Shown here one piece after another: positions 37,822 to 58,123 of a stretch of 64,000 bases of DNA. The stretch's first letter is position 1. The number at the start of each line of letters is the position of its first letter. The notes under the pieces were generated by a model. That model was not told the DNA's origin. It did no database searches and saw nothing but the letters and a program-made list of their open reading frames with translations. The DNA comes from Clostridia bacterium (GTDB lineage Bacteria > Bacillota > Clostridia > UBA1381): positions 92,836-156,835 of the forward strand of contig CAADTH010000045.1 of the NCBI GenBank assembly GCA_900751885.1, in the 5' to 3' direction. The translations under genes and the position numbers were made by a program.

Positions 37822-37921
37822 TGTTCCGCACCTCTCATAAACAAGATTTATACCATTATTATAAATCATACAAGGGGCTATAACAAGACACATTTCCGAC
37901 ATATTTGCTCCAAAAACGACA

Positions 37922-39335: not shown

Positions 39336-39444
39336 ATATAAACTGAAATTTATTATATCACTTTCTTTTTTTCTTGTAAAGTATTTTCGCGAAAAATCAA
39401 ATTATTTTCGCCGAAAACACCATACTAAGATTGGAGGTATTTAT

Positions 39445-39771
39445 ATGAATGCTCTACACACAATCTTATCCTATCTGGCGGAAAGTGCCATTTTACTTTT
39501 TGAATTTGTAGGTGTCATCATCATTATTGTTTCCGGAATTTATGGCGTCATCAACTATATCCAAAGAAATCCTTTGACACGTCTTACGCTTGCCCGCGGA
39601 ATGGCAATGGCATTGGAGTTTAAATTAGGAAGTGAGATACTTCGCACGGTATTGATTCGTGATTTGTCCGAAATTTTAAATGTTGCGGCAATCATTGCAC
39701 TGCGCGGCGCCCTTGCGTTTTTGATTCACTGGGAAATCAAAACACATCAGGCGGACTCACACATAAAATAA
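39445..39771 (+). CDS. DUF1622 family small membrane protein
   Basis: 108 aa, 2-3 TM helices. ARGMAMALEFKLGSEILRTV is the conserved DUF1622 core. RBS GGAGG. Confidence 0.7.
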   Translation: MNALHTILSYLAESAILLFEFVGVIIIIVSGIYGVINYIQRNPLTRLTLARGMAMALEFKLGSEILRTVLIRDLSEILNVAAIIALRGALAFLIHWEIKTHQADSHIK

Positions 39772-39814
39772 CCTATTTTCTTTCTTTTTTCCACATCAAT
39801 ATACAAATTATGGA

Positions 39815-39843
39815 TTGAATTGTCAGATTTAAAATGATATACT
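39815..39843 (+). promoter_or_regulatory. Candidate sigma-70 promoter for mcrBC
   Basis: TTGAAT, 17-nt spacer, then TATACT with an upstream TGa extended -10. Lies about 30 nt before the mcrB ATG. Confidence 0.4.
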
Positions 39844-39874
39844 AAAAGAAAATTGTATGGAATGATGTGAGTGT

Positions 39875-41671: not shown

Positions 41672-41676
41672 GCGGT

Positions 41677-42744
41677 ATGCGGTCAGAGAGAAAAATCCCA
41701 ATCAAAAATATTTATTATATGCTTTGCTATGCCTCCGGCGAGCTTCCCCGAAACGGGGATGCTGTCTGCGGTTCAGAACCATTTGAACATATTTATGATT
41801 TGATTGCCCGCGTATTGATTCTATCCGTCACACAGCTTTTGCGCCACGGCTTCTACCGCGAATATGTCACTGCTGAAGCATCCTTGTCTACTCTGCGCGG
41901 CAGAATTGATATCCAAAAATCAATTCATCAGCAAACTACAATAAAAAAACAGCTTATCTGCTGTTATGATGAAATGTCTGCTGATGTAGCATTGAATCAA
42001 ATCATTAAGTCAGCAATGACCGTATTGCTTCAGCACTCTCACTTAAAGAAAGAGTACCGTTTGGAGTTAGAAAAGCTTCGCCGGCATTTTTCCCATATCT
42101 CTGATATTCGTCCAAACGCACAGCTATTTTCTTCCCTACGCCTAAGCCGAAGCAGCCGGCATTATCTTCTTACAATCCATGTATGTCAGCTGCTCTTTGA
42201 ACATCTGATTACGAATGAAAAAAATGGAACTGTGCGGTTTGCAGAATTTCTGGAAGAGAAGCAAATGTCGACGCTATACGAAAAATTTGTGCTGAATTTC
42301 TTCCTTCTCCATCTTCCCAGAAAAACATTTGACGTGCGTTCTTCTAAAATTAAATGGATTCTAGACGAAGGAGTGGAGCGTCATATCCCCTACCTTCCAG
42401 AAATGAGGACAGATATTGTCCTCACCAATAAGCAATCCCAGGTTCAGCTGATTATTGATACAAAATTTTATACAGATACACTGGCTGAAGGATACTTTTC
42501 GAAGGAAAAAATCATTCATCCTGAAAATCTTTACCAAATGTTTGCTTATTTGAGCAATAGCCGATTTACTGGAAACATAATAGGACTTCTTTTATATCCA
42601 ACGGTTACAGCCGAGCTTGACTTTGAAATTCCAATCAGAAAAAAACACATTTTAGTGAAAACCTTGAATTTAAACGCAGATTGGGACTCCATTGAACAAC
42701 AGCTCCTACAAATCCCGCTTCACACCAATCTTTTTCAGGCGTGA
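41677..42744 (+). CDS. mcrC: McrC-family nuclease subunit (PD-(D/E)xK)
   Basis: About 355 aa immediately after mcrB (an alternative GTG start at 41668 overlaps the mcrB stop). MRTDIVL...QLIIDTKFY is the McrC catalytic D...(D/E)xK region. Confidence 0.8.
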   Translation: MRSERKIPIKNIYYMLCYASGELPRNGDAVCGSEPFEHIYDLIARVLILSVTQLLRHGFYREYVTAEASLSTLRGRIDIQKSIHQQTTIKKQLICCYDEMSADVALNQIIKSAMTVLLQHSHLKKEYRLELEKLRRHFSHISDIRPNAQLFSSLRLSRSSRHYLLTIHVCQLLFEHLITNEKNGTVRFAEFLEEKQMSTLYEKFVLNFFLLHLPRKTFDVRSSKIKWILDEGVERHIPYLPEMRTDIVLTNKQSQVQLIIDTKFYTDTLAEGYFSKEKIIHPENLYQMFAYLSNSRFTGNIIGLLLYPTVTAELDFEIPIRKKHILVKTLNLNADWDSIEQQLLQIPLHTNLFQA

Positions 42745-42791
42745 AACAATCAAATCATGCCTATTTATCATTTTTATTCTGAGGTGACAGT

Positions 42792-43544
42792 ATGCTTTCA
42801 ACAGAAAAATTTCTTCAGCTCCGCTCCGATACGCGATGTGTTGACGCCGTTTCCTATACAGCTGAGCAGCGGCTTCAGCTGATTTTAGCAAAAGAAAATG
42901 CCTTTACCTACAGCAAAGAGCTGTTTTATACATACGGCGGTGAGGATTACACGGAGAGAATCCGGCATATTCCTATCCCGGATTCCCCTTGCTCTTATTC
43001 CAAGCTCGTCGAAACCTCAAAAGGCGAACTGATTATTTTAATTGATTTGATGCTTCAGAATTTTGAATCTCTCATCTTAAATCCTCCGCCGCATTCTCCT
43101 CTTGCGCGCAGTAACCCCAAAAAGGTGTTTATCGTTCACGGGCACAATGAAGCGCTGAAATTAAATGTCTCCACTTGGCTGTACTCTGTCGGATTAACGC
43201 CGGTCATTCTCCATCTTCAGCCCAATGGCGGTTTGACCAGTATTTTAGAAAAGATAGAACACAACTCGGATGTGGGCTGTGCCATTATCTTATTGACTGC
43301 CGACGATGTTGGGAAGTCTATTTCCGAAACAGACTATCATAAAAGAGCACGGCAAAATGTAGTGTTCGAGGCAGGCTATTTCGCCGGAAAGCTCGGTAAA
43401 AACCGTGTTGTTTTGTTATATGAAGCCGGAGTCGAGCTTCCGGGGGATCTTTTGGGGAATGTCTATATCCTCGCCGATGAGCACGACGGATGGAAAGAGC
43501 AGGTGCGGCTTGAGCTTTGTGCGATGGGGTTTCATCTTACATAA
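42792..43544 (+). CDS. TIR-like (CAP12/PycTIR-type, COG4271) domain protein with unknown N-terminal domain of about 110 aa
   Basis: C-terminal KVFIVHGHNEALK...GLTPVILHLQPNGG.TSILEKIE...GCAIILLTADDVG...ARQNVVFEAGYFAGKLGKNRVVLLYEAGVELPGDLLG matches the conserved block order of this TIR-like family. RBS GAGGTG. Confidence 0.8.
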   Translation: MLSTEKFLQLRSDTRCVDAVSYTAEQRLQLILAKENAFTYSKELFYTYGGEDYTERIRHIPIPDSPCSYSKLVETSKGELIILIDLMLQNFESLILNPPPHSPLARSNPKKVFIVHGHNEALKLNVSTWLYSVGLTPVILHLQPNGGLTSILEKIEHNSDVGCAIILLTADDVGKSISETDYHKRARQNVVFEAGYFAGKLGKNRVVLLYEAGVELPGDLLGNVYILADEHDGWKEQVRLELCAMGFHLT

Positions 43545-44246: not shown

Positions 44247-44678
44247 CTATATAGCTTTCATAGGTCCCACTACACTTTGTCGGAAAATCAAATCCTTTTC
44301 TCTTCTCCTCGCTGACAGGTTTGATATCCAAAGAGGATTCTGTATCTGCTCGTTTCCCTCAGTATATTCTGATTCTGCGATAAAATGATAATAAAAGAGA
44401 TATCCTGCTGCACTTCCTGCAATCAGAATAATCGCCATTGCTATTACAATAATCCACGATACTCCTTTGCGATGCGACCTATTGCTTTGTTTCCCTGTTT
44501 TGATTTGTGTACTGTTTACAGAAAAACCACATCCGCTACAAAATTTAGAATTTTCCTCTATTTGTCCGCCGCAATTTTTACAAAACTGCTTTAGAGGGAT
44601 TTTCTGAACCTTATCGCCACAATAATCACAAAAAATGTCCCCTTCTGTTACTTCATTTCCACACTTTTCACATACCAT
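44247..44678 (-). CDS. Double zinc-ribbon, single-pass membrane protein
   Basis: Start at MVCEKCGNEV (RBS GGGAGAG). Two CxxC-x(8-12)-CxxC ribbons, then TM VSWIIVIAMAIILIAGSAAGYLF. Confidence 0.6.
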   Translation of the reverse strand: MVCEKCGNEVTEGDIFCDYCGDKVQKIPLKQFCKNCGGQIEENSKFCSGCGFSVNSTQIKTGKQSNRSHRKGVSWIIVIAMAIILIAGSAAGYLFYYHFIAESEYTEGNEQIQNPLWISNLSARRREKDLIFRQSVVGPMKAI

Positions 44679-44689
44679 AGTAACTCTCC

Positions 44690-46315
44690 CTATTTTTTCT
44701 GTTTTCTGCCGTGTAAATTTATTCTGATGAATGCTATCAGCAGGAAACAGAATATGACAGCCAAACATAAGATAACAATGAATAAAACCACCTTATTGAT
44801 GGTATTAAATTCTATGTCAATCGTTGCATCCGAGCCCAAAACAGTTGAATATTCATTATTATAGAAGCTACATTCCTCTATATTGGATGAGAGTAAATTG
44901 GTTTTATCAGGGAGCTTGTATATCAGCTCAAATTCTGCTATTGGAATCATATCGTCAATCATTTTTCCTACTCTAATTGTCTCAGAAATCCGATTTTTCT
45001 GAAAGGGTATCATACTTTTTTCATATTCAATTCGGTTATCCCCTCTTATTATTTTTTGCGTAAATTCAGTTATTTTTTTACTATCGCGAGAATGAACCGC
45101 AATACAATATGTCTTATTCTCACCTTCCACGTCCGTCGAAATATTAGCTTTCCTATCATTCGTTTTGACATTATATAGTGTATCTAAAATTTTTTCATCA
45201 AATACCTTTGCTGTATCCAATGGAATTGAAAAAATAATTTTTCGTTCTATCCCTTTGAACATATTACTGTAATCTGTTCTTACCTGCAGAGCAGACAATT
45301 TCAATCCTCTTTGATAGGAATATTCAAATTGCCCCTCTTCTCCAGAATACCTGATTTGATTTTCGTGAACAGAGAGTGTATCACTTTCTGTAATAGATAA
45401 ATTTTTATAATATTGCGGATATGTAAAACTATACTCAAAATTCCCATCTTCATTGAGAACCTTTGTAACGCCTATACGTTCCATGCAATCTACCAAAACA
45501 AAATCCTTTTGCGGTGTTTCCGTTTCCAAGGTACTGACTGTCAATCCCGCTGCCAGCAAAGTCTTTTTTGATAATTCATATTGGTTTTCTGCTTTTATTG
45601 ACACAGTTATATCTAAGTTATCACTATTTTTATTTTCATTTGAAATCTCCCCTGCCGCTTTGAAATTAGTCCACACTGCACTTTTTGTGGAATCTATCAG
45701 ATGTTCCTTTCTTATTTTCGCTCTGATTGTCCGTTCGAATCCACCATCACCATTACTTGTTGTTACGAGCTCTAACTCATCAAATCTTATATGATTGCCA
45801 TCTCTTACGTCAAAATTTTCTTTTGTTTCATATGTTTTTCCATTCAAATCGATCATACAATTTTCAATTTTAATCAATCTGTCAAATTTTAATTCCTTCA
45901 TCATATTGTTTGACAGCAGTTGTTTTTGTAAAAAATGAAACATCTGTGCAGAATCAAAATTTTCAACAAATTTAAAGCTCTCTGAGGGGTCATAAATGAT
46001 TACAGGACGGTATCCCAATAACTGCTTCATATATGTTTCATATTCATCTCTTTTGTCAAACGAAAAACAAAGTGTTATTTTCATGTCGCGTTTTTGTTTT
46101 TCAATTTCATAGCTACACCAGCTTGGAAGCGTTTCACTCAAAATGTTTTCAAACGTTTTCGAGCCGCCATCTATAAAATTGTTTAAATCTGATCTGTCAA
46201 AGGTACATACAAGTGTTCTGCTTCCGCAAAAAGGTACTTCCTCTGCATATGCGGCTATCGCTGATAAGAAAAGAAGCGATAGGATGATAAAAATTGATGT
46301 GATATTTTTTTTCAT
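44690..46315 (-). CDS. Hypothetical secreted protein with C-terminal TM anchor
   Basis: 541 aa. Signal peptide MKKNITSIFIILSLLFLSAIAAYA and C-terminal TM VVLFIVILCLAVIFCFLLIAFI. No recognisable domain. Confidence 0.55.
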   Translation of the reverse strand: MKKNITSIFIILSLLFLSAIAAYAEEVPFCGSRTLVCTFDRSDLNNFIDGGSKTFENILSETLPSWCSYEIEKQKRDMKITLCFSFDKRDEYETYMKQLLGYRPVIIYDPSESFKFVENFDSAQMFHFLQKQLLSNNMMKELKFDRLIKIENCMIDLNGKTYETKENFDVRDGNHIRFDELELVTTSNGDGGFERTIRAKIRKEHLIDSTKSAVWTNFKAAGEISNENKNSDNLDITVSIKAENQYELSKKTLLAAGLTVSTLETETPQKDFVLVDCMERIGVTKVLNEDGNFEYSFTYPQYYKNLSITESDTLSVHENQIRYSGEEGQFEYSYQRGLKLSALQVRTDYSNMFKGIERKIIFSIPLDTAKVFDEKILDTLYNVKTNDRKANISTDVEGENKTYCIAVHSRDSKKITEFTQKIIRGDNRIEYEKSMIPFQKNRISETIRVGKMIDDMIPIAEFELIYKLPDKTNLLSSNIEECSFYNNEYSTVLGSDATIDIEFNTINKVVLFIVILCLAVIFCFLLIAFIRINLHGRKQKK

Positions 46316-46317
46316 TT

Positions 46318-49149
46318 TTAATCCTCCAAAATTAGATCATATCTGTAAATCGCATTTGCAGTCGCGCTGTCAGGCATGGAATAAAAATAGATTCTGTTGT
46401 CCATGATTTCCATTCCGCAATTTTCCAGATCACAGCTTAGTCTTAACAAATCAAACCGTTTTATCTCTTCCTTCTGCGTAAAGTCATTGCTTAAAGAGTA
46501 TAAAATCAATTCTGTATCTGTCTGATCAAAATACCACCAATTCCCTGCACCATCCTGACACATTGTAAAGAATGCTTGATTGCTATTGACCTCCACCATC
46601 CGTTTGCTATTACCGCTTTTCGCATCATAAAGGACAATTTGATACGGCAAGGCATCTTCTTGTTCCGTTTCATTCTTCACGGTTGTGATAATGCCATCCT
46701 TTTCATACTTCCATCCACTTATCCCTTCCGCCTTGATAAATCCACCACCATATTGCAGGTGAACCGCTTGCGCTGTACCTCTTAAATATCCATTCGAAAT
46801 ATATTGAACTGCTGCATGATATCCGCCCTCTTTGTAATATTCCCTTGGATATTCTTCGACTGTTATTTGCTTCCCGTATTCCTTCACAATCCCCCCGTCT
46901 TTGTTTATCAAGTAATAATCGTTTTCTGCTCCGCCCAAAAATGAAAATATGCTGTTTTCCTTTGTAACCACCATAAAATTATCATCCTGTTCTACCATAA
47001 CCTCCACAGGCTCATGCAATTCGCACAAATCAGATACAGAAAGATTTTCTCTGTTTAAACGCCTGATTGATTTATTGTTATCATTTGGAACATAATAAAA
47101 GTATTCTTCATCCATATGCAAGCACCAGTTGATGCTTTTTAAAATACTATCCTTTTTCTTTCCGTCCTTGCTTACGCGCAATAAATCATATACGCCTTTT
47201 TCTTCGCTTGCTTTCAGCAAATAGATATATGAGGCATCTATTCCGCAAATTGTAAAGAAATCCTCCTCATAAAGAACCTTATCCCCTGCGCTACCATCAT
47301 TGTTCTTTCGTTCCAATTTTCCATTGAGATTTTTCATATAGGTACATGCTTCATCCTTTGCAACCATGCGCTGATACTGCATGGTGTTTTCATCAAAATC
47401 TGTCGGATACGACACATTCCTGTTGTCATTTTCTTCATCCTCTTTCGCTTCTTCCTGTTGGCTTTTCTTGCTATCCAATGCCTTTTTCACTGCATTCTCA
47501 GCGTTCAGCATCTCATATTTTTTTCCTTCGCTCCATTCATACTCCCCTGAGGCGGTACTGCAAACTATATTTTTCACCTCTTCCCCTGATAAATTTGGAT
47601 TTATTGAGAATACCATCGCAGCAACCCCCGCAACATGAGGTGCCGCCATTGACGTTCCTTGGTTATTCAAATAAGTTTTATTTATAAATCCCAATGTGTT
47701 TACATATATTCCTGTACTATATATATTGACACCCGGAGCTAAAATATTGACTCTTTCGCCGCATTGGCTAAAATCAGCAATGGAATAAACGTTCTGTGCG
47801 TCACATTTGGCGGCGCCCACCACGATGATTCTGTCTTTTATTCTTTTATTTTCAATGGCGTTCAATACATCATATTTTGCATCCACATTCCCAAATTCCA
47901 CTCTCCTATCATAGTCTTCATATTTTGCTTTAAATGTATCTTTATTATCGTCTGTAAGCTCGACATAGCCATATTTATTCTGATCTTCCGGATCACCGGG
48001 ATCTACCCTTATGTATTGATACTTCGTATTGCTATCTGTAGAATTCTGATTTCCGGCAGCTGTACTTATAATAAAGTCATATCCACTATCCAGCAAAAAC
48101 TCTAAATACTCAGCAAGACAATTGCTGTCTTCTGTGATTTCATTTTTTGCTTTTATGCTGTCTCTGCTTGCAGCAAATGCAACTACATCATTTATACCCA
48201 TACTAATATTGACAACCTTGCATTTATCTATTACTATCAATTCAGTTAACGCTACAATATATCTGCTGATAGTAGTATAGTTTTCAGCAATTCCACTTTC
48301 CGAAACAGCATATAGCTTATTTTTAGGAGCTACCCCTGCTACCCCCTGTTTATTGTTGAATAACGCCGCTATTGTACCAGATACATGCGTACCATGACTG
48401 ATTCTTTTTAGTTTTTTATTTTCCTCTTTTATCTGTTTGTCACTTAAATTAAGTAACGGCGCTTTCTCAAAACGTAAATCGTTATGTCTGGTACAGAACA
48501 TATTATCAAAAACACCAATGTTTACTTCGCTCATATCATCTATGTATTCCCACGCTTCTCGTGCATGAATTGCTTTCATTCCCCAATTCAAATCTTCCGG
48601 ATTCACATTGCTATCCTGCCAATAACTCTTCCACTCTTTGTCATTTGGTGCTTTTTTATTATATTGAATATCGAGTTTTATCGCCGTATCAATCGATACA
48701 TGATTGACGAATTTTTCTTTCTTTATCTTTTCAGCAATTCCATTTAAATCATTGTAACGATAATGGTCTTTAAATTTTAGCTGGTACATTTTCGTACAAT
48801 CTAAATATCCTATCAATTCACAATGATATTTTTTCGCCAGTTCCTCAATAAAGCTATCCGCTACTGTACGGTCAGCTCTTATGATGAGTTGATTATCCAC
48901 ATAATGAATTCCTGTTTTCTCGTCGATTTGTATTTCTTCTTGATTTGCGCTTGTCCAATAGAAGCCGTCGCGATATTGAGAGGATACATTCGCATTTCTA
49001 ACAATCATGTAACCCACGCTTCCCGCGATGGCAATTAAAATACTGATAAGCAATACATACCGTGTCTTACACCTTTTCACCGCTGCTCCGCAGTAGATGC
49101 AAAATTTTGTTTTTGGGGGCAAATTCCTTCTGCACTTAGGGCACTTCAT
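46318..49149 (-). CDS. Zinc-ribbon / TM-anchored S8 subtilisin-like serine peptidase with C-terminal DUF5050-like propeller
   Basis: Start at MKCPKCRRNLPPKTKFCIYCG (RBS AAGGAAGG), then a TM helix. Catalytic D (GVFDNMF), H (HGTHVSGTIAA) and S (GTSMAAPHVAGVAAM). The C-terminal region has repeated YY...LYR/DG blades. Confidence 0.82.
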   Translation of the reverse strand: MKCPKCRRNLPPKTKFCIYCGAAVKRCKTRYVLLISILIAIAGSVGYMIVRNANVSSQYRDGFYWTSANQEEIQIDEKTGIHYVDNQLIIRADRTVADSFIEELAKKYHCELIGYLDCTKMYQLKFKDHYRYNDLNGIAEKIKKEKFVNHVSIDTAIKLDIQYNKKAPNDKEWKSYWQDSNVNPEDLNWGMKAIHAREAWEYIDDMSEVNIGVFDNMFCTRHNDLRFEKAPLLNLSDKQIKEENKKLKRISHGTHVSGTIAALFNNKQGVAGVAPKNKLYAVSESGIAENYTTISRYIVALTELIVIDKCKVVNISMGINDVVAFAASRDSIKAKNEITEDSNCLAEYLEFLLDSGYDFIISTAAGNQNSTDSNTKYQYIRVDPGDPEDQNKYGYVELTDDNKDTFKAKYEDYDRRVEFGNVDAKYDVLNAIENKRIKDRIIVVGAAKCDAQNVYSIADFSQCGERVNILAPGVNIYSTGIYVNTLGFINKTYLNNQGTSMAAPHVAGVAAMVFSINPNLSGEEVKNIVCSTASGEYEWSEGKKYEMLNAENAVKKALDSKKSQQEEAKEDEENDNRNVSYPTDFDENTMQYQRMVAKDEACTYMKNLNGKLERKNNDGSAGDKVLYEEDFFTICGIDASYIYLLKASEEKGVYDLLRVSKDGKKKDSILKSINWCLHMDEEYFYYVPNDNNKSIRRLNRENLSVSDLCELHEPVEVMVEQDDNFMVVTKENSIFSFLGGAENDYYLINKDGGIVKEYGKQITVEEYPREYYKEGGYHAAVQYISNGYLRGTAQAVHLQYGGGFIKAEGISGWKYEKDGIITTVKNETEQEDALPYQIVLYDAKSGNSKRMVEVNSNQAFFTMCQDGAGNWWYFDQTDTELILYSLSNDFTQKEEIKRFDLLRLSCDLENCGMEIMDNRIYFYSMPDSATANAIYRYDLILED

Positions 49150-49249
49150 CTTTTTTACCTTCCTTTTCTTCCAAAATAAAACAATTACCATATGGATTAC
49201 ACCTTCCTATGGTAATTGTATTCACTTCTGTAGCTTGTTTAAATTTATG

Positions 49250-50356
49250 TTACGCCCCTATTTCATCAGTGACATTCCCGTCATAATCCAATAAATATAA
49301 TTTGTTTTTGTAAGCACTTGCCAATCCGTTGCTGAGTCCCTGTATAGAGCCAAAGTATTTTTTGATATTTATCTCTTCCACTCCACCGCCGTTCATATCA
49401 TAGCGATATAGCTTAGAATCAACTTTATAATATATATCATTATTACAAGCAAATACCGAATAGCTTTGTCGATCGATTTGTGTAAGTTCGCGACGGCTTT
49501 TTCCATCTAAGCTTATTGTGAAAGAGCGATATTCAGAGTCTTGATATATAATCTGATCTTCCATAAATAAAAAATCACGTACTCCTCCGTCAATGAGTTT
49601 CTCCTGTTTTCCATCCACTAAAGATATTCTTATCAATTTATAGTATTTTTTATCTGAATTCAAACTATTATCTGTTATGGTTGCATAAATATAATTTTTA
49701 TAAATTTTGGCTTTATATATTTCATCACCACGCGATCCGATATCTATCTCGATCGAACGCTCTGAATATTTTTCCGAATTTAATCTTTTTGTTAAAACAC
49801 CGCCATCACTTAGTGTATAATTATATTTACCATTGATTAAAACTATATCGGTACTGCTTGGTATATATGGTACTTTTTCAAACTCAGATGCCTTATCTAA
49901 TATTCGATAGCAATCATTTTCATTGCCCGTACTCTCTTCATAATAAATTCCATTGTCTGCTACAGCAATCACACTTATTATACTGCTAGATATTTGTTCA
50001 GTGATTTTTGTTCTTTTATTCATTCTACACAATCCGAAATCTTCAAAATCAATATAATATATATACGAACCGGTTTCATAAATAAAAGTGTTATCATATT
50101 TACTATTATTTACGCTTAGTCCTTCATCATAAATTTTTATATCATTAACACTAGAATAAACACGAAAAACATTGATGCTTGCGATAAAGAATAAAATCAA
50201 AATTGCCAGCATCATGATAAAGACTTTCTTTTTTGAATTATTTTTATAAGGATATATTACAGACGCCGCCTGAAACTGATTTTGCAGTTGATTTCCGCAG
50301 TAAACACAAAATTTTATTCCTTCTTTATTTTCTTTTCCGCACTGATTACAAAACAT
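49250..50356 (-). CDS. Zinc-ribbon / TM-anchored DUF5050-like beta-propeller protein
   Basis: Start at MFCNQCGKENKEGIKFCVYCG (RBS GAGGGAG), then a TM helix. Repeated blades (IYYID..., GIYYEE..., YIYATI..., IIYQDS..., DIYYKVDSKLYRYDMNGG). Confidence 0.68.
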   Translation of the reverse strand: MFCNQCGKENKEGIKFCVYCGNQLQNQFQAASVIYPYKNNSKKKVFIMMLAILILFFIASINVFRVYSSVNDIKIYDEGLSVNNSKYDNTFIYETGSYIYYIDFEDFGLCRMNKRTKITEQISSSIISVIAVADNGIYYEESTGNENDCYRILDKASEFEKVPYIPSSTDIVLINGKYNYTLSDGGVLTKRLNSEKYSERSIEIDIGSRGDEIYKAKIYKNYIYATITDNSLNSDKKYYKLIRISLVDGKQEKLIDGGVRDFLFMEDQIIYQDSEYRSFTISLDGKSRRELTQIDRQSYSVFACNNDIYYKVDSKLYRYDMNGGGVEEINIKKYFGSIQGLSNGLASAYKNKLYLLDYDGNVTDEIGA

Positions 50357-50369
50357 ACTCTTCTCCCTC

Positions 50370-50930
50370 TTACTTTTCTTTTTGTATCGCGACAACTCCA
50401 AGCACAGCTGTCAATATGCTCAGCAGTATAATGCTGGGCATTCTTTCAACATAGGGATTCAAAACCACTGTAATCGCTCCCATAAAGCTATCGCTTGTTG
50501 TTTGTTTGAAAAACAGGCTTGCAAGAATGATGATACATGTAGTCACTGCCATCGCAATCAGATTCTTATTTTTAGTTTTTTTTGAATAAAGGATAAAGTG
50601 TAATGCGCGGATAACTCCCCACATTCCTATTGCAAAATAGCAGGTGCAAAATGAAACAAATCCGATTCCATCCTGCCGAAGCAACAAATCCGAAACCGTA
50701 TTGACACTTGCTTTTAAGCAAACATTGAGTTGAAACAGTGCCAATACTGCAAATGATAAAATTGCCATCCAATGCAGCACCTTTGACACATCTATTTTAG
50801 ATATGCTTGCCGCACTGCCTGCATTGTGTCCATTTATAGCAACGGCTGTTGCCTCCCCATTGTCAGCACCGCACTTTGTACAAAACCGCTCATTGTTTAA
50901 CTCACTTCCACAATTGATACAAAATCTCAT
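50370..50930 (-). CDS. Zinc-ribbon protein with 4 predicted TM helices
   Basis: 186 aa. MRFCINCGSELNNERFCTKCG, then hydrophobic helices. Confidence 0.62.
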   Translation of the reverse strand: MRFCINCGSELNNERFCTKCGADNGEATAVAINGHNAGSAASISKIDVSKVLHWMAILSFAVLALFQLNVCLKASVNTVSDLLLRQDGIGFVSFCTCYFAIGMWGVIRALHFILYSKKTKNKNLIAMAVTTCIIILASLFFKQTTSDSFMGAITVVLNPYVERMPSIILLSILTAVLGVVAIQKEK

Positions 50931-50970
50931 AATCCTTCTCCTATCTCAAGGCTTTGCCTGAATGCTGCCT

Positions 50971-51396
50971 CTAGTCCTGTGTTTGTATTGGTTTCCCGCA
51001 TCGGGCACAAAACTTTGCGGTATCTTTATTGATATAGCCACACTCGCATTGGATTCCATTTTGGACTGGCGGCGGCGTTATCGGCTGTGTATATTGTACC
51101 GTCTGTATTTTTGCCTCCTCAAGCATTTGGAGCTGTTGTTTCAGCTGTATTATTTGTTGCTCGCGTCCCGCTATTTCATTACATAGTTCAACACACTGCT
51201 CTATCTGAATTTCTCCGCTTGTCTGCAGGTGATAGATTTGTGTGCCCATGCTATGTAGCAAATGATTTTTTTCCTGTTGTGCATCTTCAATCTGCGTATT
51301 TAATTTTGCCTTTTCAACTAACATCTTTGAGCCTTCGCTCACTGTATTTACCCCTTTGCTTACGCCTACCACCAGCTTATCCAAAAAACCTGCCAT
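50971..51396 (-). CDS. Coiled-coil protein with C-terminal zinc ribbon
   Basis: 141 aa. Helical N-terminus MAGFLDKLVVGVSKG..., Q/E-rich coiled coil, C-terminal CECGYINKDTAKFCARCG. Confidence 0.62.
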   Translation of the reverse strand: MAGFLDKLVVGVSKGVNTVSEGSKMLVEKAKLNTQIEDAQQEKNHLLHSMGTQIYHLQTSGEIQIEQCVELCNEIAGREQQIIQLKQQLQMLEEAKIQTVQYTQPITPPPVQNGIQCECGYINKDTAKFCARCGKPIQTQD

Positions 51397-51446
51397 TTTA
51401 CATTCCCCCTATTTATTTTTTAATATAAGTAACATACAAAAACCCA

Positions 51447-51824
51447 CTACTGCCGTTTGTATGCAGTAAATTGATTCCATGATAAAATAGCCAAGATAGC
51501 ATATACTGCAATATTCAAAAGGAAGCTTGTGTTAAATGAATACATGATAATACTGAACAGATTGCTGCATGCTCTCAGCCCAAAAGCCACCCCCAACGCT
51601 AACATATCATTTTTACTGAAGCTCAGCACAAGCCCCATGATGTAAATGAAGTATAAGATTGGACCTACAATTCCCACAATGACACTGAGAACGGTAAATT
51701 GGCACAACAGCAAATAGATTGGATAAATCAATACCAATATGCGTGAAATTTGTAAACCGATCAGCATGATATCTTTGCTTTTAAAATAGTCATTCAATAC
51801 CTTTTGTACATCTGATAATTTCAT
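51447..51824 (-). CDS. Small 4-TM membrane protein (first gene of the operon)
   Basis: 125 aa, RBS AAGAGGAAG, four hydrophobic helices. Confidence 0.58.
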   Translation of the reverse strand: MKLSDVQKVLNDYFKSKDIMLIGLQISRILVLIYPIYLLLCQFTVLSVIVGIVGPILYFIYIMGLVLSFSKNDMLALGVAFGLRACSNLFSIIMYSFNTSFLLNIAVYAILAILSWNQFTAYKRQ

Positions 51825-51987
51825 GTTACTTCCTCTTTTCTATAAGATTCTTTCGTTTCATTTTAAACCATCCATCGTTTTATATGCTTTGTTCATCGTT
51901 TTCGTACATCTGCCGTTTTTTTTATTTTATGCGTTCTGGCTGTACCCGACCGTTCTTATGTCAATCTTCTACATCCTATTTAAAAAA

Positions 51988-52029
51988 ATAAGAATCACCA
52001 CATAATTTACATTATGTGGTGATTCTTAT
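51988..52029. repeat. Left dif-like recombination site embedded in a 19-bp-arm perfect palindrome
   Basis: ataagaatcaccacataat-ttac-attatgtggtgattcttat. The 24-nt core accacataatttacattatgtggt lies at 51997-52020. Confidence 0.6.
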
Positions 52030-52171
52030 CGGATTTTATGATAAACAACGAATTCTTTTCTTTTAATAAACAAAAAACCCACTGCATTTAGACCGATAGA
52101 TACCTTAAAAATCCATCGGTCTGTTTCTGCTTACATTTTTTTCAACATTTTTCTTAATTTTTTAAAGTCTA

Positions 52172-52199
52172 TTGACAAACCCTTTTTTTCGACTATAAT
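52172..52199 (+). promoter_or_regulatory. Consensus sigma-70 promoter inside the flanked segment, currently facing away from the zinc-ribbon operon
   Basis: TTGACA (52172-52177), 16-nt spacer, TATAAT (52194-52199). Confidence 0.55.
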
Positions 52200-52227
52200 A
52201 TGTATAGAGAGAACTAAGAAGAATCAT

Positions 52228-52265
52228 CAAATAAACCACATAATGTAAATTATGTGGTTTATTTG
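52228..52265. repeat. Right dif-like recombination site embedded in a 17-bp-arm perfect palindrome
   Basis: caaataaaccacataat-gtaa-attatgtggtttatttg. The central 4 nt are the reverse complement of the left site. It ends 1 nt before the recombinase stop codon. Confidence 0.6.
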
Positions 52266-53114
52266 TTAGCACTGCAACAAGCCTAATTTCTGTATTTGTT
52301 TTCTGTGAACCTCTCCTGTTTCCATTGTATATATCCGTGTTGTATTTATATTGCTATGTCCAAGTATATCTGCAAGGCGTATAATATCCCTTTGGGCTGA
52401 ATAATATGTCCGGGCAAATAGATGTCTGAAGTTATGTGGAAATACCTTGTTTTTGTCTACCCCTGCGTCAGCACATAGCTTTTTCATGTCACTCCAAATA
52501 TTTGACCGATCCATAGGCTTTCCTGATTTTGTTATAAACACCGCTCCGCTGGTAATTCTTCGCTCTCTGACATATTTTTTGAGCAGCTGACAAAGCTGTT
52601 TGGGCAATATTACAATTCTCATTTTGCCTTTACAATTTATAGTTGCCTGTCCAGCCTTCACCGCTTCCACTGTAATAAATCTAAGTTCCGATACTCTGAT
52701 TCCTGTTGAACAAATGGTCTGCATTAAATAATATAACCTTTTGTTGTTTTTATCCAAAGCTGCCCTTAGCAGTCTTTGATATTCTGCCTTTGTCATCTCT
52801 TTTTCCTTGGCAGCAAATATTTGTCTTTGAATCTTTACCGCTTTCACCTTGCAGTCCGTCCACCCAACAAATTCCAAAAAACGATTCAGCGATGAAAGAA
52901 TTGCGTTAACGCTTGCGGGAGCATACTTTCCTATGATAATTTGCTTGTACTCCAACATTAAGCTCTTATCCACCTCTCTGTCTAAGCACCATTGTCCAAA
53001 TACCGTTACATCATGGATATATTTATTCAATGTAGAAATGGATTTTTCCTCGAACTTTAAATATTCTCTAAACTCATCAATTCTTTTTACTGTTATTTTT
53101 CTCATGCTTGCCAA
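52266..53114 (-). CDS. Tyrosine-type site-specific recombinase (Xer-like, 282 aa)
   Basis: N-terminal SAM-like core-binding domain. Catalytic region GIRVSELR, HNFRHLFA, LGHSNINTTRIYT (R...HxxR...H...Y). Confidence 0.88.
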   Translation of the reverse strand: MASMRKITVKRIDEFREYLKFEEKSISTLNKYIHDVTVFGQWCLDREVDKSLMLEYKQIIIGKYAPASVNAILSSLNRFLEFVGWTDCKVKAVKIQRQIFAAKEKEMTKAEYQRLLRAALDKNNKRLYYLMQTICSTGIRVSELRFITVEAVKAGQATINCKGKMRIVILPKQLCQLLKKYVRERRITSGAVFITKSGKPMDRSNIWSDMKKLCADAGVDKNKVFPHNFRHLFARTYYSAQRDIIRLADILGHSNINTTRIYTMETGEVHRKQIQKLGLLQC

Positions 53115-53273: not shown

Positions 53274-53918
53274 TTAATTTCTAACTAAAGTATATGTGTT
53301 ACATTCCCCCTCGGGTGCTGAATTGAAATAGCTGGTATGATTGCATTCATATTTGACAGCATATGTAATACCACCGCCGCCATCTTTTATGCCTTTTATC
53401 TGAACTGTACCGGTAGTTGGCACTTTAAATTCCCGGGGTTTGTTTTTTATCATAAAAGCATTTCCAATAGGAGCACCATCAACTAAAATCTGAACATAAT
53501 CTCCGTCTTCTGCCGCATAATCCCAAATCCAAACTTTCGACTCATCCGATACGCTATCGTGAGTGACCGTGTAGTCCTGTACACCTATCGTTTCATCTGA
53601 CAGCATCAGTGTGGTGCCGGCAGATAATGAGGTAGAAATTTTTTCTCTAATAGCCTGCTTTGCCGCATCGGAAGTATTGATCGAAGGTGTAGTGCTGATG
53701 AAAAACATCGTTACCATTGATGCAATAATCAGGACAATTCCTGTAGTCTTTATCCATTTATCAAACGAGATTTTTCTATTTGTCTTTGGATTTTCTTCAG
53801 GCGGAGTTTGATTATTTTGAGTTGACTGAACAGATTCATTGTTCGCTTGTTCAGAAGTGTACAGTGTATTCATAGCTTCATTGATTGAATCCTGTGAGTC
53901 TTTTTTTCTATTATTCAT
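53274..53918 (-). CDS. Hypothetical single-pass membrane protein with beta-rich extracytoplasmic domain
   Basis: 214 aa. Low-complexity N/Q/S-rich N-terminus, TM GIVLIIASMVTMFFI, and a C-terminal domain with no recognisable motif. Confidence 0.5.
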   Translation of the reverse strand: MNNRKKDSQDSINEAMNTLYTSEQANNESVQSTQNNQTPPEENPKTNRKISFDKWIKTTGIVLIIASMVTMFFISTTPSINTSDAAKQAIREKISTSLSAGTTLMLSDETIGVQDYTVTHDSVSDESKVWIWDYAAEDGDYVQILVDGAPIGNAFMIKNKPREFKVPTTGTVQIKGIKDGGGGITYAVKYECNHTSYFNSAPEGECNTYTLVRN

Positions 53919-53923
53919 AAAAC

Positions 53924-54373
53924 TTACTCCTTCATGTATTTCAATGGTTTCATTTTAAAATACATGCACATGGCAATCCGGCACACAACCATTTGAACAA
54001 TCATTAATATACAAAACAATCTGTGTCTTGCTTCACTCTGGACTTCATAGCCATAATTTAAAATCGCAATTCCTACTACTATGATGAGAATGTCTAATAG
54101 AAGCGTCACAACATATGAATATAACCAGGGAAGCTTTTTGAAGCATTTCCTAAAACATGGCACAAGCATAGTGATAGAGGCCATTATTCCAAGTGCACCA
54201 AACAATGAAAATCCCGCAGTGTTACTAGCGAAACCAGAAGTAAGTATTGTATTCATATCTATCAACAACCCGAATGGTATGAAAAAAAGTTCCAATATTA
54301 AAGGAAAAACTATTCCTATAAACCATAAAATGGAAACCAGATTTGATATGGCATTTTTAAACCCATTTTTCAT
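53924..54373 (-). CDS. Hypothetical 4-TM membrane protein
   Basis: 149 aa. Its ATG overlaps the stop of the AAA+ gene by 4 nt, suggesting translational coupling. Confidence 0.5.
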   Translation of the reverse strand: MKNGFKNAISNLVSILWFIGIVFPLILELFFIPFGLLIDMNTILTSGFASNTAGFSLFGALGIMASITMLVPCFRKCFKKLPWLYSYVVTLLLDILIIVVGIAILNYGYEVQSEARHRLFCILMIVQMVVCRIAMCMYFKMKPLKYMKE

Positions 54374-57300
54374 ACCGAAACCTCCTTAATATCTTCGGCT
54401 GTTATTGTGATTAGCTCTTCTTTTGTCAAATCATTGTCCTTACTTAATCTAAGTGCCTGATTATCTACTGATTTTTCAAATACATTTCTAACAAATCGAC
54501 CGTTTCCAAACTGAGGATTCTGTTTTGCCGTCTCGAACAGATTATAAAGACTTTGCTTTGCCTGGGTATCAATCATATAGCCTTTAGAATTGTATTGTTT
54601 TTCCGCGATTTGAATCAATTCCTTTATGGTATAATCAGGAAACTCAATTATATTTGCAAACCTGGATTTTAGTCCCGCATTTTTTAACAGGAAATTGTCC
54701 ATATCATTGCTGTATCCAGCTAAAATAACAACCAATCTATCCCTATTATCATCCATCAATTTAACCAGTGTGTCAATGGCTTCTCTGCCAAAATCATTTT
54801 CGCCACCTTGTATCAGCGAATAGGCTTCATCAATGAATAAAACACCATCTAATGCACTTTGTACTATCTGTGTGGTTTTTATTGCCGTTTGACCAACATA
54901 TCCTGCTACAAGCCCTGCTCTGTCTGTCTCGACTAATTTGTTGGCTCTGATAACCCCCATATGATACAACATATTAGCAACTGTTCTTGCCATCATGGTT
55001 TTACCCGTCCCAGGATTGCCCTTGAAAATCATGTGCCTCGTTTGTGTTTCATCTACTTGTAATCCTAGTTTTCTTCGTTCTTCTTGCATCCTAAGCCGGG
55101 CATTCAGACTTCTCATGTAATTTTTAACAACTTCTAAGCCAATCACATTTTCAAACTCTTTTTCTATGTCGAATCTTATATTATCAGCTTTTTTCACAAC
55201 AATATCTTCAGGTAGAATAACATTCATTTCGTTTGATGCAACATCTGATATTGCAATTCTCGACGATTGATTTCTTACAAGTTCATCAATATAATTTCGA
55301 ATCATTCTTCCGTTGCCTGAGTGCACGTTTGAATGTTTCTGAAGATTATGAATCTGTTCCTTGAAAAGATTGACACTTGCATCTGTGAATACAAATCCCC
55401 TGCTCTCAATCATCTTCAAGCCAATTTGAAATAATTCATCAACTGAATAGTCTGGAAAATTGATTCTAAGAGGGAATCGGGATTCCAAGCCTGAATTTGC
55501 TTTTAAAAAATCTTTCATTTCTTTTTCATATCCAGCCAGTATAACCAATATTTCGCCTCGATAATCCTCAATCAGCTTAATGAGAGTGTCAATGGCTTCT
55601 TGACCAAAACTACTGCCATCGTTTGTTATCGCGTAGGCTTCATCTATGAACAAAACCCCACCCAAAGCCTTTTGAAATATCTCTTCTGTTTTTCTGGCAG
55701 TTTGCCCAACATATTCTGCTACTAAACCACGTTTATTGGTTTCAACTAAATGACCTGATTTTAAAATGCCCATCTGTTTGAACATATCGGCAACAACTCT
55801 GGCAATTGTTGTTTTACCTGTCCCAGGATTGCCAGAGAATATCATATTCAACGACTGGGTGGTATCCACTTTAAGGTCAGCCTTTCTACGCTTTTCCTGA
55901 GCAATAAGCAGCTTATGTTGTGTTCTGACAAAATCCTTAACTTTAGATAAACCAATTATTTTTGACAACTCCGTTTCCAAATCAAAGTTGTTTGTTTCAT
56001 CGAATTCAAAATCGGCTTTTGTTAATAATTCTAAATCAACAGTATGATCTTGGACAATACGCCTAGACTGCTTTAAAATAGCTGCTTCAACCATATTTCT
56101 CACCAATCTGCCATTACCATTGTCATTTTTACCCTTTATTTGAGATTTCTCAAATAATTTTAACAAGCCATCTTCGCATTCGCTATCAATACGATATCCT
56201 TTATTTCTTGCAGTAATTAAAGAGATATGATACAGTTCTGACGGCGTATAATCCTCGAAGTTTATCCTATTGGGAAATCTTGATTTTAAACCGGGATTTG
56301 CTTTCAAGAGTTCTCCTATTTCCTTTTCATAACCAGCCAAAATGACAACTAAATCATCACGGTTGTCTTCCATACCTTTAACAAGTGCATCAACTGCTTC
56401 AAGTCCAAAAATATCATTTTTATCTCTGTACAAGGAATATGCTTCATCAATCAATAGGACACCGCCAATACTGCTGCGAATCACTTGAGCTGTAAGCTGT
56501 GCCGTCTGACCAATATATTGCCCCACCAAATCGGCTCTTGTAACCTCCCTGAGTTGCCCGGAAGAAAGAACACCGATCGCTTTTAAATATTTTGCTACCA
56601 TACGTGCAATCATTGTTTTACCTGTACCCGGATTACCGGTAAATATCATATGCATGGAGACATCCGCAGCTTTAAGCCCTTGTACTCGTCTAAGCTCTTG
56701 AACCTTTAAATTTTCTTCAATGTTCAGCACATAATCTTTGACACTTTTAAGACCAATAACAGTATTGAGCTCTGTTTTTATCTTATCAGCTGCAACAGAA
56801 TCATACTTTTTCACAAAATCCGATAAAGCTATCTCTTGGTTATTGATTGTTGCCACAAAGCAGTTATTATATGAAAGAAAAACTGATTCTTCTGACTGTG
56901 TTTGATTTCTCAAACGATATTCAGATAAAGCCTTATAAATTTCGTTTTCTATATAATCTTCCAGTCCTTTAATTCCTGTTTTGGTATGAAAGGATGATTT
57001 GATTTTATCATTGAAGGCAGAATCTGTAGCTATATTCATTTTCAAATACTGTTTGCATTTATTTATAAAACGAGCAATCAACATATGAGTGATAGAAGCT
57101 ATTTCTTGCTCCTTAAAATTCTGCATCAAAATGATATCACCAATGCATTTTGTAAAAGCAGTGCCAAATGTTTCAGAAATCTGATTTTCTCCTTTTTCTG
57201 AAATAAATATAAAAAATTTACCGTTACAATGAAGTACATCAATAGAATTTGTTAACAAAGCTCCTGTTGCTTCAACCAGCATGTTATTCTGAAGCGCATA

Positions 57301-57987
57301 TCTTTTATTCAAATTATATGTTCCGTCTTGGAGCAATCGGGAAATAATCTCCAAATTATTACTATGAGTCTTTTCATAGTCTTTAAAAACCACAATATCA
57401 TTTTGTCCATATAAAGCCTTATAAATATCAGATAAAAATAGATCAGACTCAGATGAAGTGGGATATTTGCTTAAATCTACTTGTCCTATCGTATGATTTG
57501 TTATCACCTTTCGTTTCTTTAAAAGCTCGGCAATTTTTTCGACGCTATAGTATTTCCCCATGCTTTTAGCACCTAAAATGAAAATAATATTTTTCGGTAT
57601 AATATTATCATATCCGCTGACATACGGTCTTTTAAACGCGGTGCATAATTGAGAAATATAATTTTCGTCCGCGATTATTTCCTGAGATAATAGCACGTTT
57701 AAATCACTGAATTTATCTTCTATAGAATTTGGTTTTATAATCTTTTCATTTTTTGATGGATATGATAAAGCGGTATTCGTTCTTGCCGCCTGCTCAACCG
57801 CATTCGATATAGGCTGTTGCGGTTGATTTACAGCAGAGGCGCTTTCGCCGAACTGCGTATTTTCCACTGTACTATTCGCTGCCCCTGCCTTATATTTTCT
57901 TGTGATAAAGCCGTCTTTTTTTATTATTTCTATAATCTCCCATTCAGGGAATAGAAATTTTAGCGCTTTCTTAAGTGTACTTTTCAC
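54370..57987 (-). CDS. Giant multi-AAA+ ATPase: degenerate Clp-D2-like module plus three tandem CbbX/CfxQ/SpoVK-type AAA+ modules
   Basis: 1205 aa, GTG start with RBS GGAGGA. Walker A GNPGTGKT occurs three times (codons 451-458, 719-726, 990-997), each followed by L[LF]IDEAY Walker B. The N-terminal module has GAKSMGKY and VVFKDYEK in place of functional Walker A/B. Confidence 0.85.
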   Translation of the reverse strand: MKSTLKKALKFLFPEWEIIEIIKKDGFITRKYKAGAANSTVENTQFGESASAVNQPQQPISNAVEQAARTNTALSYPSKNEKIIKPNSIEDKFSDLNVLLSQEIIADENYISQLCTAFKRPYVSGYDNIIPKNIIFILGAKSMGKYYSVEKIAELLKKRKVITNHTIGQVDLSKYPTSSESDLFLSDIYKALYGQNDIVVFKDYEKTHSNNLEIISRLLQDGTYNLNKRYALQNNMLVEATGALLTNSIDVLHCNGKFFIFISEKGENQISETFGTAFTKCIGDIILMQNFKEQEIASITHMLIARFINKCKQYLKMNIATDSAFNDKIKSSFHTKTGIKGLEDYIENEIYKALSEYRLRNQTQSEESVFLSYNNCFVATINNQEIALSDFVKKYDSVAADKIKTELNTVIGLKSVKDYVLNIEENLKVQELRRVQGLKAADVSMHMIFTGNPGTGKTMIARMVAKYLKAIGVLSSGQLREVTRADLVGQYIGQTAQLTAQVIRSSIGGVLLIDEAYSLYRDKNDIFGLEAVDALVKGMEDNRDDLVVILAGYEKEIGELLKANPGLKSRFPNRINFEDYTPSELYHISLITARNKGYRIDSECEDGLLKLFEKSQIKGKNDNGNGRLVRNMVEAAILKQSRRIVQDHTVDLELLTKADFEFDETNNFDLETELSKIIGLSKVKDFVRTQHKLLIAQEKRRKADLKVDTTQSLNMIFSGNPGTGKTTIARVVADMFKQMGILKSGHLVETNKRGLVAEYVGQTARKTEEIFQKALGGVLFIDEAYAITNDGSSFGQEAIDTLIKLIEDYRGEILVILAGYEKEMKDFLKANSGLESRFPLRINFPDYSVDELFQIGLKMIESRGFVFTDASVNLFKEQIHNLQKHSNVHSGNGRMIRNYIDELVRNQSSRIAISDVASNEMNVILPEDIVVKKADNIRFDIEKEFENVIGLEVVKNYMRSLNARLRMQEERRKLGLQVDETQTRHMIFKGNPGTGKTMMARTVANMLYHMGVIRANKLVETDRAGLVAGYVGQTAIKTTQIVQSALDGVLFIDEAYSLIQGGENDFGREAIDTLVKLMDDNRDRLVVILAGYSNDMDNFLLKNAGLKSRFANIIEFPDYTIKELIQIAEKQYNSKGYMIDTQAKQSLYNLFETAKQNPQFGNGRFVRNVFEKSVDNQALRLSKDNDLTKEELITITAEDIKEVSV

Positions 57988-58094: not shown

Positions 58095-58123
58095 ATTATA
58101 GCACATTTTTTTTCGCCATGCAA
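58095..58123 (-). promoter_or_regulatory. Candidate sigma-70 promoter for the AAA+ operon
   Basis: Minus strand TTGCAT, 17-nt spacer, TATAAT with TGc extended -10. Lies about 105 nt upstream of the GTG start. Confidence 0.45.

Follow-up and report, generated by a model that had tools for sequence, protein, structure and literature searches.

A three-gene cassette of a multi-module CbbX/SpoVK-type AAA+ ATPase and two unannotated membrane proteins: a possible membrane-docked remodeller

Introduction

[quoted passage not shown] SpoVK itself is the Bacillus subtilis AAA+ protein that promotes the function of MurG (PMC11513918). SpoVK-family ATPases with tandem AAA+ domains are attached to type III-A CoCoNuT systems, where only the C-terminal AAA+ domain still has Walker A and B (PMC11090510). 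In this report we describe a three-gene operon, here called the trio, in a 64,000-nucleotide (nt) stretch of contig CAADTH010000045.1 from a Clostridia bacterium (the window is this whole stretch). The trio encodes an ATPase with three modules of the SpoVK-EccA type in one chain and, behind it, two membrane proteins: one of 149 amino acids (aa) with four transmembrane segments (the 4-TM protein) and one of 214 aa with a single transmembrane segment and a beta-sandwich. The ATPase fits a known kind of AAA+ chaperone; what is unusual is its module arithmetic and its two unannotated partner families. Apart from dynein and midasin, few chains are known to carry four or five AAA+ domains. We read the trio, with a probability of roughly 0.45, as a remodeller that is driven by ATP and docks onto a sensor/effector unit of two membrane proteins.

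Conservation of the trio

Two search patterns based on the 214-aa protein, run over about 185,000 genomes that each represent one species, yielded 74 species-level loci, a number that is a lower bound. A multi-module ATPase gene lies directly upstream in 69 of the 74, and the 4-TM gene, whose place is right after the ATPase, is there in 71 of the 74; the genes of the surveyed trios share one strand and either abut or overlap. The five loci that have no such ATPase comprise two contig ends, two that are truly ATPase-less (L043 and L081) and one with a weak match. Where the ATPase homologues are 80%, 59% and 50% identical to that of the window, they are followed by genes for proteins of 149-150 aa and then 218-219 aa with the same overlaps, and both membrane proteins are clearly homologous across these loci. 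The relatives of the ATPase number in the thousands; a tight family of about 1205 aa, at 57-80% identity, has the same layout. The 214-aa protein belongs to a small family, which forms 448 clusters when grouped at 90% identity and has 432 representatives when grouped at 50%, annotated "hypothetical" everywhere.

The hosts are mainly Bacillota (Clostridia, Bacilli and Negativicutes), the others being Campylobacteraceae, Spirochaetota, Fibrobacter, Holophagales and metagenome-assembled genomes (MAGs) of Gastranaerophilaceae and Anaeroplasmataceae. Acetobacterium woodii, Clostridium cellulovorans and a Campylobacteraceae MAG carry the trio, and the membrane-protein families occur, for example, in the first two of these and in C. 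botulinum. Several host lineages do not sporulate (Campylobacteraceae, Fibrobacter, Selenomonas, Spirochaetota and Granulicatella).

The sequence-only reading of this DNA had proposed a functional link between the ATPase and the two membrane proteins, and had allowed that homologues might turn up without conserved membrane-gene neighbours. The link is supported by the strict synteny in 69 of 74 loci over several phyla, by recurrent fusions of the membrane pair and by fusion of the ATPase N-terminal motif (N-motif) to the 4-TM protein.

Placement of the cassette varies among genomes. In the window it lies beside guaA in a low-GC stretch (0.34-0.38 versus 0.47-0.49). One copy is carried by a mobilisable element that also encodes a relaxase, AbiEii and ApeA-HEPN; another adjoins ToxN and a prophage lysis cassette, and the same protein is found in a different context as well. 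Further trios lie near ParE/Phd or HicAB and others among ordinary genes. A direct-repeat search for attachment (att) sites of the island gave chance-level matches only. On this sequence evidence we regard the trio as a horizontally mobile, self-contained and conserved cassette.

Fusions, reduced variants and sister chains

At least 10 representative clusters of 313-370 aa consist of the 4-TM protein fused to the 214-aa protein, and one such fused protein sits behind a three-module ATPase. In the Paenibacillus montaniterrae locus (L081, 7453-8675) the ATPase gene is absent and the 4-TM homologue begins with MNVLEFLKFLFPEYQILNAVRLYGLISLK, which is the ATPase N-motif; the beta-sandwich protein is separate there. 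A single 422-aa chain (P0263; L095, 5226-6494) joins N-motif, 4-TM protein and beta-sandwich protein with no ATPase nearby. Another reduced form (L079/L080, 6600-8639) has a 351-aa ATPase stub, made of the N-motif and half of the pseudo-AAA domain, together with a fused membrane protein. The idea, raised by this last form, that loss of the cytosolic tail of the 214-aa protein tracks loss of ATPase modules was dropped, as a tail-less fused protein also pairs with a three-module ATPase. As separate observations, the P0263 gene adjoins an Rce1-like CPBP protease and a type II restriction-modification (R-M) system, and one locus (L022, 6116-8459) has a single ATPase gene followed by two consecutive, diverged pairs of 4-TM and beta-sandwich genes.

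The N-motif (Table 1) has F11, F13, P14, E15 and G26 invariant among 27 homologues and is kept in 65 loci. It is present in all chains of about 1205 aa and of 1477 aa (the three- and four-module class), and every examined context of this class carries the 4-TM (TM4) and 214-aa (P214) genes. It is absent from sister chains of about 1620-1934 aa. One of these (P0042) has 1631 aa, a dead ClpB-like domain (31% identity, E=7e-61) and four modules; another (P0059) has 1934 aa, five modules and N-terminal tetratricopeptide repeats (TPRs), and pairs with Hsp70/DnaJ. The class of about 1620 aa has a different N-terminus, and Hsp70-like genes stand in both contexts examined, that of P0042 and that of P0059. 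From its fusion to the 4-TM protein in variants that lack the ATPase, and from its absence in the Hsp70-paired sisters, we take the motif to be, probably, the adaptor by which the ATPase docks onto the membrane unit.

The sister systems with four and five modules (L087, 1403-12896, and L085, 32-13805) have Hsp70-like, DnaJ/TPR or Sel1-repeat partners and large unknown proteins; that of L087 adjoins genes for Endonuclease_NS_2, Macro, KAP NTPase and DUF4435. These Hsp70-linked systems appear to be uncharacterised.

Three intact modules and a degenerate ClpB-like domain

By their motifs, all three modules of the ATPase are intact and predicted to be catalytically live. A Pfam scan finds three AAA and three AAA_lid_6 domains (AAA_lid_6 E=2e-46); the best NCBIfam models are SpoVK (spore_V_K at the top), EccA and CbbX, each with three matched stretches; and a sequence search of the PDB finds CbbX (3ZUH, E=5e-58) and EccA1 (E=3e-52). 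The three paralogous CbbX-type modules, each with Walker A, Walker B and lid, that had been recognised from the letters alone are thus borne out. Within the chain, M1, M2 and M3 are 48-50% identical in pairwise comparison. Walker A (GNPGTGKT) and (L/F)IDEAY recur in all three and are invariant among the same 27 homologues, as are the pore-loop tyrosines (Table 1), the glycine and tyrosine of the sensor-1 motif ILAGY (G552/Y553, G819/Y820 and G1091/Y1092) and, in every module, GNGRxxRN, which holds sensor-2 or the second arginine finger. The modules therefore carry the features by which PMC11513918 delimits the SpoVK-EccA-like clade, namely Walker A and B, a GY sensor-1, a sensor-2 arginine and an AAA_lid_6-type lid.

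The domain ahead of M1 is of another kind. It is, on sequence and modelled fold, a homologue of the second nucleotide-binding domain (NBD2, or D2) of Hsp100/Clp proteins. Positions 669-847 of the NCBIfam ClpB model align to ATPase residues 197-375; the sequence matches ClpC1, ClpC and Hsp104 D2 at E of about 5e-3; and the AlphaFold2 (AF2) model compared with ClpB NBD2 and Skd3 in Foldseek reaches TM-scores of 0.66-0.72 over about 330 columns. Its P-loop reads GAKSMGKY, with the Walker A threonine replaced by tyrosine, and its Walker B reads FKDYEK, with DE replaced by KD; the family consensus at these sites is GxxSxGK and FEN. Aligned to ClpC, the domain has a deletion in place of the pore-loop segment, and the tyrosine there is lost. 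We call the domain a pseudo-ATPase, predicted to be non-catalytic, because its P-loop and Walker B are degenerate and the pore-loop segment is missing. A degenerate ClpA/B D2-like block that had lost the Walker A threonine and the Walker B acids had been noticed before, and hidden Markov model, sequence and Foldseek comparisons now agree on it.

Module arithmetic

The modules have a positional identity, each being 57-73% identical to its positional orthologue in distant homologues versus 41-52% across positions. Two-module chains, found in Lachnospiraceae, two Selenomonas and Fibrobacter, are M1+M3, and four-module chains are M1+M2+M2+M3; module number is thus 2, 3 or 4 in the trio family and 4 and 5 in the sister chains. 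A one-module chain (L067) was rejected as a genuine variant, being a frameshifted truncation. By this pattern M1 and M3 are fixed and only the middle module M2 is lost or duplicated. Because only the middle module varies (0, 1 or 2 copies), stacked tiers in the manner of ClpB D1/D2 are the more likely geometry, by analogy, and would fit better than a fixed planar ring of six modules.

The two membrane proteins

The 149-aa protein has four transmembrane segments and is predicted from its charge distribution to have both termini inside; a cytosolic loop, FRKCFKKLPWLY, is conserved, and C77, H117, C131 and C136 are invariant. The AF2 model of the 214-aa protein (predicted local distance difference test, pLDDT, of 80) has a short N-terminal helix, a disordered segment, a transmembrane helix at 52-74 and a confident beta-sandwich at 116-213. 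The beta-sandwich is predicted to be extracytoplasmic, and its motifs WDYAxxDGDYVQ and DGxGGI are invariant. Across the family the cytosolic tail spans 34-82 aa (median 59), consists of about 60% K/N/E/S/D/Q and has a pLDDT below 50.

A Foldseek search of the PDB with the 214-aa model gives weak beta-sandwich matches to Ca-dependent carbohydrate-binding modules (CBM60/36) and LecB-type lectins (best E=8e-3, TM-scores 0.27-0.48), and one of viral structures gives weak matches only. A sequence search of the PDB with the family profile finds nothing below E=0.26, and PADLOC, Pfam, NCBIfam and PHROGs hold nothing significant for either membrane protein.

A proposed mechanism and its alternatives

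In the mechanism that we propose, the 4-TM and 214-aa proteins would form one membrane unit, to which the N-motif would tether the ATPase, and the dead ClpB-like domain would serve as scaffold or as adaptor tier. Stacked in rings as in ClpB D1/D2, the live modules would spend ATP on pulling at those portions of the membrane unit that lie in the cytosol, the polar, disordered N-tail of the 214-aa protein being the best candidate for a handle. This pull would move the unit from one state to another, in concert with the binding of a ligand by the outward lectin/CBM-like beta-sandwich. The dedicated-remodeller habit of the clade fits, by analogy, a machine dedicated to two membrane partners. Several points weigh against this mechanism. 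The CBM/lectin likeness of the modelled beta-sandwich is weak. The threading of the tail is a step that we infer, and the fused membrane protein that pairs with a three-module ATPase has an internal linker of about 45 aa, not a free N-tail. The fusions of N-motif to 4-TM protein could equally be in-frame deletions of the ATPase body, and the AF2 model of the full ATPase chain has a predicted TM-score (pTM) of 0.34 and is uninformative on inter-domain geometry.

The least certain point is what the remodeller would serve. A role in conflict or defence is a tentative proposition, and a role as an envelope chaperone is nearly as likely. Whether the trio is a mobile conflict or defence module or one that senses the envelope, its membrane unit would be the sensor/effector and its ATPase the controller of that unit. 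In its fullest form, which we consider doubtful, the conflict version would make the trio a mobile system of anti-phage or abortive-infection type, in which a lectin-tipped membrane sensor/effector is armed or restrained by a peptide-docked AAA+ ring stack and the sisters reuse the chassis with Hsp70-like partners. The stack would comprise one dead ClpB-like tier and 2-4 CbbX-type tiers, docked through the 30-aa peptide. About 15 of 246 genes within two positions on either side of the trio match PADLOC at E<=1e-10, a raw count without a matched control; among the matches are MADS, AriA, AbiD, AbiQ, type I R-M, DRT and ApeA. Toxin-antitoxin (TA) or defence genes stand in 5 of 7 Pfam-annotated contexts of 10 kb on either side. 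Against a conflict role, most immediate neighbours are ordinary (histidine kinases, methyl-accepting chemotaxis proteins, GNATs, housekeeping sensors and enzymes), and tblastn of the 214-aa protein finds no match in 72,556 plasmids or 50,697 phage records. The association with defence genes is modest, and the trio is not demonstrably a defence system.

The alternative with most in its favour is a non-conflict chaperone for quality control of the envelope or its membrane proteins, or for signalling, which would sense cell-wall glycans through the beta-sandwich and act as remodeller of a complex in the membrane; we think it possible, though on balance unlikely. The SpoVK/CbbX/EccA clade consists of dedicated chaperones, some of them linked to the envelope through MurG and mycolic acids (PMC11513918), many trio loci lie among ordinary chromosomal genes, and the absence of the 214-aa family from the plasmid and phage collections, like its weakly lectin/CBM-like fold, is in keeping with such a role. 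It sits less well with a rare distribution, patchy over phyla (at least 74 of about 185,000 species genomes), with the low-GC island, the mobilisable element and the same protein in different contexts, or with the modest enrichment of TA and defence neighbours and the sister chains in defence-like islands. Far less probable is the model of the sequence-only reading, in which two three-module chains form a planar pseudo-hexamer that remodels zinc-ribbon membrane proteins as a unit with a recombinase. Three modules in two chains do make six, and zinc-ribbon/transmembrane proteins, an S8 subtilase and a recombinase do lie just downstream of the trio in the window. The recombinase and zinc-ribbon genes, however, accompany the trio in this genome only; they stand beside it in no other locus examined, and neither the proposed action on those proteins nor the recombinase link is supported. 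Inverted 22-nt sites around a perfect promoter suggest that the recombinase belongs to a separate phase-variation switch. As for the pseudo-hexamer, the family has 2, 3 and 4 modules and the sisters 4-5, through loss or duplication of the middle module, and four or five cannot tile a hexamer, which weakens the dimer as a general rule.

Two further alternatives can be set aside with more assurance. That the ATPase is a simple orthologue of SpoVK, CbbX or EccA is very improbable: its whole-protein NCBIfam scores lie above the cut-offs of all three equivalog models, yet these scores are sums over three modules (839 bits in three stretches, versus a cut-off of 423). Non-sporulators carry the trio too, its neighbours include no Rubisco, type VII secretion system (T7SS) or WXG100 genes, and the N-domain is unlike that of all three, so that orthology is already contradicted by architecture, distribution and context. 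That the row of modules arose as an artefact of assembly or duplication, a caveat entered earlier, we regard as negligible: nothing found speaks for it, the modules are only 48-50% identical, the identical protein lies on 6 independent contigs, and hundreds of protein clusters, in more than 70 species, show the same architecture. The reading that we favour is still that of a remodeller driven by ATP and docked on a membrane sensor/effector unit.

Several consequences would follow. With motor number tuned through one specific middle module, nature has provided an experiment on the cooperation of tandem AAA+ rings, and the partners are two protein families, of roughly 430-450 clusters, without a Pfam model or annotation. 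Should the trio turn out to serve in defence or in sensing the envelope, the "dedicated chaperone" clade of SpoVK, CbbX and EccA would thereby reach membrane effectors as well. Were the conflict version true, it would, with the Hsp70-linked sisters, reveal a modular chaperone chassis in bacterial conflicts and a new family of chaperone-driven immune modules whose chains hold as many as five AAA+ domains. Even as an accessory chaperone only, the trio is a well-defined new operon for annotation.

Operon layout and genomic neighbourhood

The positions of the three genes are exactly as first given for this DNA, and direct reading confirms the stop/start overlap and the 5-nt gap described with them. 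By sequence reading, the ATPase starts at a GTG, and GGAGG stands 7 nt before it. Stop codon of the ATPase and ATG of the 4-TM gene overlap (ATGA; GTATGA in context), with AAGGAGG upstream of that ATG, and the 5 nt separate the 4-TM gene from the 214-aa gene, which is preceded by AAGGAG. The ATPase is thus coupled in translation to both membrane proteins. A promoter that may drive the operon was assigned by direct reading (Table 1); a consensus scan does not list it, its -35 hexamer having 3 of 6 consensus positions.

Table 1. Features of the trio and of its surroundings in the window (residue numbers refer to the ATPase)
Feature	Position	Strand	Remarks
Candidate operon promoter	58095-58123	-	TTGCAT-17 nt-TATAAT, TG-extended -10, inside the 242-nt gap after guaA
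Multi-module AAA+ ATPase gene	54370-57987	-	1205 aa, cytosolic, no transmembrane segment
N-terminal motif	57898-57987	-	Residues 1-30, LKFLFPEwqI...GFIxK; proposed dock to the membrane unit
Polar disordered tether	57718-57897	-	Residues about 31-90; variable, pLDDT 24-29, no conservation
ClpB/ClpC NBD2-like AAA+ domain	56818-57717	-	Residues about 91-390; D2-small lid and small beta element
Module M1	55984-56781	-	Residues about 403-668; GNPGTGKT (Walker A) from 451, IDEAY, pore-loop Tyr491; CbbX/SpoVK-type AAA+ with lid
Module M2 (middle)	55174-55977	-	Residues about 671-938; GNPGTGKT (Walker A) from 719, DEAY, pore-loop Tyr759; copy number 0-2 across the family
Module M3 (terminal)	54370-55164	-	Residues about 942-1205; GNPGTGKT (Walker A) from 990, DEAY, pore-loop Tyr1030
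4-TM membrane protein gene	53924-54373	-	149 aa, no Pfam family
Single-pass membrane protein gene	53274-53918	-	214 aa, no Pfam family
Tyrosine recombinase gene	52266-53114	-	
Putative inverton region	51987-52265		
Inverted 22-nt sites	51998-52019, 52237-52258		Each within a longer hairpin
Promoter between the inverted sites	52172-52199		TTGACA-16-TATAAT, perfect
Zinc-ribbon operon	44247-51824	-	Low GC
Defence islet	39260-43544		
tRNA-Ala(CGC)	39260-39335		
McrB-like AAA_5 gene	39875-41671		
McrC gene	41668-42744		
TIR-domain protein gene	42792-43544		CAP12/Pycsar-type

The recombinase gene downstream looks like the invertase of a separate invertible promoter switch. Its inverted sites read CCACATAAT-TTAC-ATTATGTGG and the reverse complement (TTAC/GTAA), and the roughly 217 bp between them hold the promoter, which now faces the 3' end of the adjacent recombinase gene; a recombinase with inverted sites around a promoter is the typical invertible-promoter arrangement. 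When flipped, this promoter would drive the minus-strand zinc-ribbon/S8 operon, from 51824 to about 44247. The flipped orientation has 0 matches in metagenome contigs, the sole other contig having the same orientation. The operon, unlinked to the trio in other genomes, is one of membrane proteins whose zinc ribbons are N-terminal, and it encodes proteins of 125 aa (transmembrane), 141 aa (coiled coil and zinc ribbon), 186 aa (zinc ribbon and transmembrane), 383 aa (zinc ribbon and DUF5050), 957 aa (zinc ribbon and S8 subtilase), 541 aa (exported) and 173 aa (double zinc ribbon).

The defence islet adjoins tRNA-Ala(CGC), and its McrBC and TIR genes, the latter after McrC, lie 10-15 kb from the trio. 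A 1478-aa open reading frame at 33517-37953 (-), considered as a paralogue of the ATPase, proved to encode an unrelated surface protein (InlB B-repeats, CBM96, DUF4978) and adjoins an AraC regulator. In 12-13 of about 62 trio loci the gene immediately before the ATPase, in the same orientation and 13-31 nt away from it, encodes a DUF4236-domain protein of 365-510 aa (for example L002, 8890-9987, and L050, 1304-2836); the gene is absent from this window. It is the only recurrent extra gene at trio loci, and its families also appear in PHROGs, with function unknown there.

Comparison with known systems

Literature searches found no description of the trio operon, and the earlier statement that no named system has this composition holds, with PADLOC and Pfam blank for the membrane proteins. 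Among defence systems, PADLOC-DB v2 gives the ATPase partial, per-module matches only, to IetA, TRIP13 and DolB. The IetA models match best, and IetAS, which Gao et al. are said to have described as an anti-phage ATPase with an S8 protease, invites comparison through the S8 subtilase 5 kb away in the window. These matches, however, cover single modules in part (89 bits), the NCBIfam IteA model reaches 86 bits versus a cut-off of 510, and the S8 gene is separated from the trio by the recombinase and promoter switch and is absent from all other trio loci.

CbbX (3ZUH/3SYL) is the best match of each module in both sequence and structure (38-40% identity, E=5e-58), with GNPGTGKT, DEAY, the LVGQYIGxTA pore loop, the ILAGY sensor-1 and the AAA_lid_6 lid in common. 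Whereas CbbX is a single-module, Rubisco-linked homohexamer, the trio chain has 2-4 serial modules, a dead ClpB-like domain and membrane partners, and no Rubisco gene occurs in any of about 80 trio neighbourhoods. EccA (PDB 9LUR) shares the CbbX-type module (E=3e-52) and is likewise a cytosolic ATPase, one that serves a membrane machine; it differs in its N-terminal TPR, which the trio ATPase lacks, and in its ESX/T7SS neighbours, no T7SS or WXG100 genes being found among the trio neighbours examined. SpoVK, the top NCBIfam model, belongs to the same higher-order SpoVK-EccA-like clade and is a dedicated remodeller with an N-terminal recruiting element; it has a single module and a short beta-rich N-domain and is confined to sporulating Bacillota, whereas the trio ATPase has another N-terminus and other partners and occurs in non-sporulators.

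The fold and D2-small lid of ATPase residues from about 91 to 390 are those of the NBD2 of ClpB, ClpC, Hsp104 and Skd3, but the Walker A threonine, Walker B DE and tyrosine pore loop of these proteins are missing, as are NBD1 and the middle domain. CoCoNuT tandem ATPases resemble the trio ATPase in their tandem AAA+ domains and conflict-system loci, and differ in having C-terminal leucine-rich-repeat and beta-barrel fusions, VWA, McrBC-like and glycine-zipper partners and one active module, without 4-TM or beta-sandwich partners (PMC11090510). Among the systems considered, the Hsp70-linked sisters P0042 and P0059 have the same chassis as the trio ATPase, joined to another N-terminal adaptor, without FLFPE, and to Hsp70-like, DnaJ/TPR or Sel1 partners.

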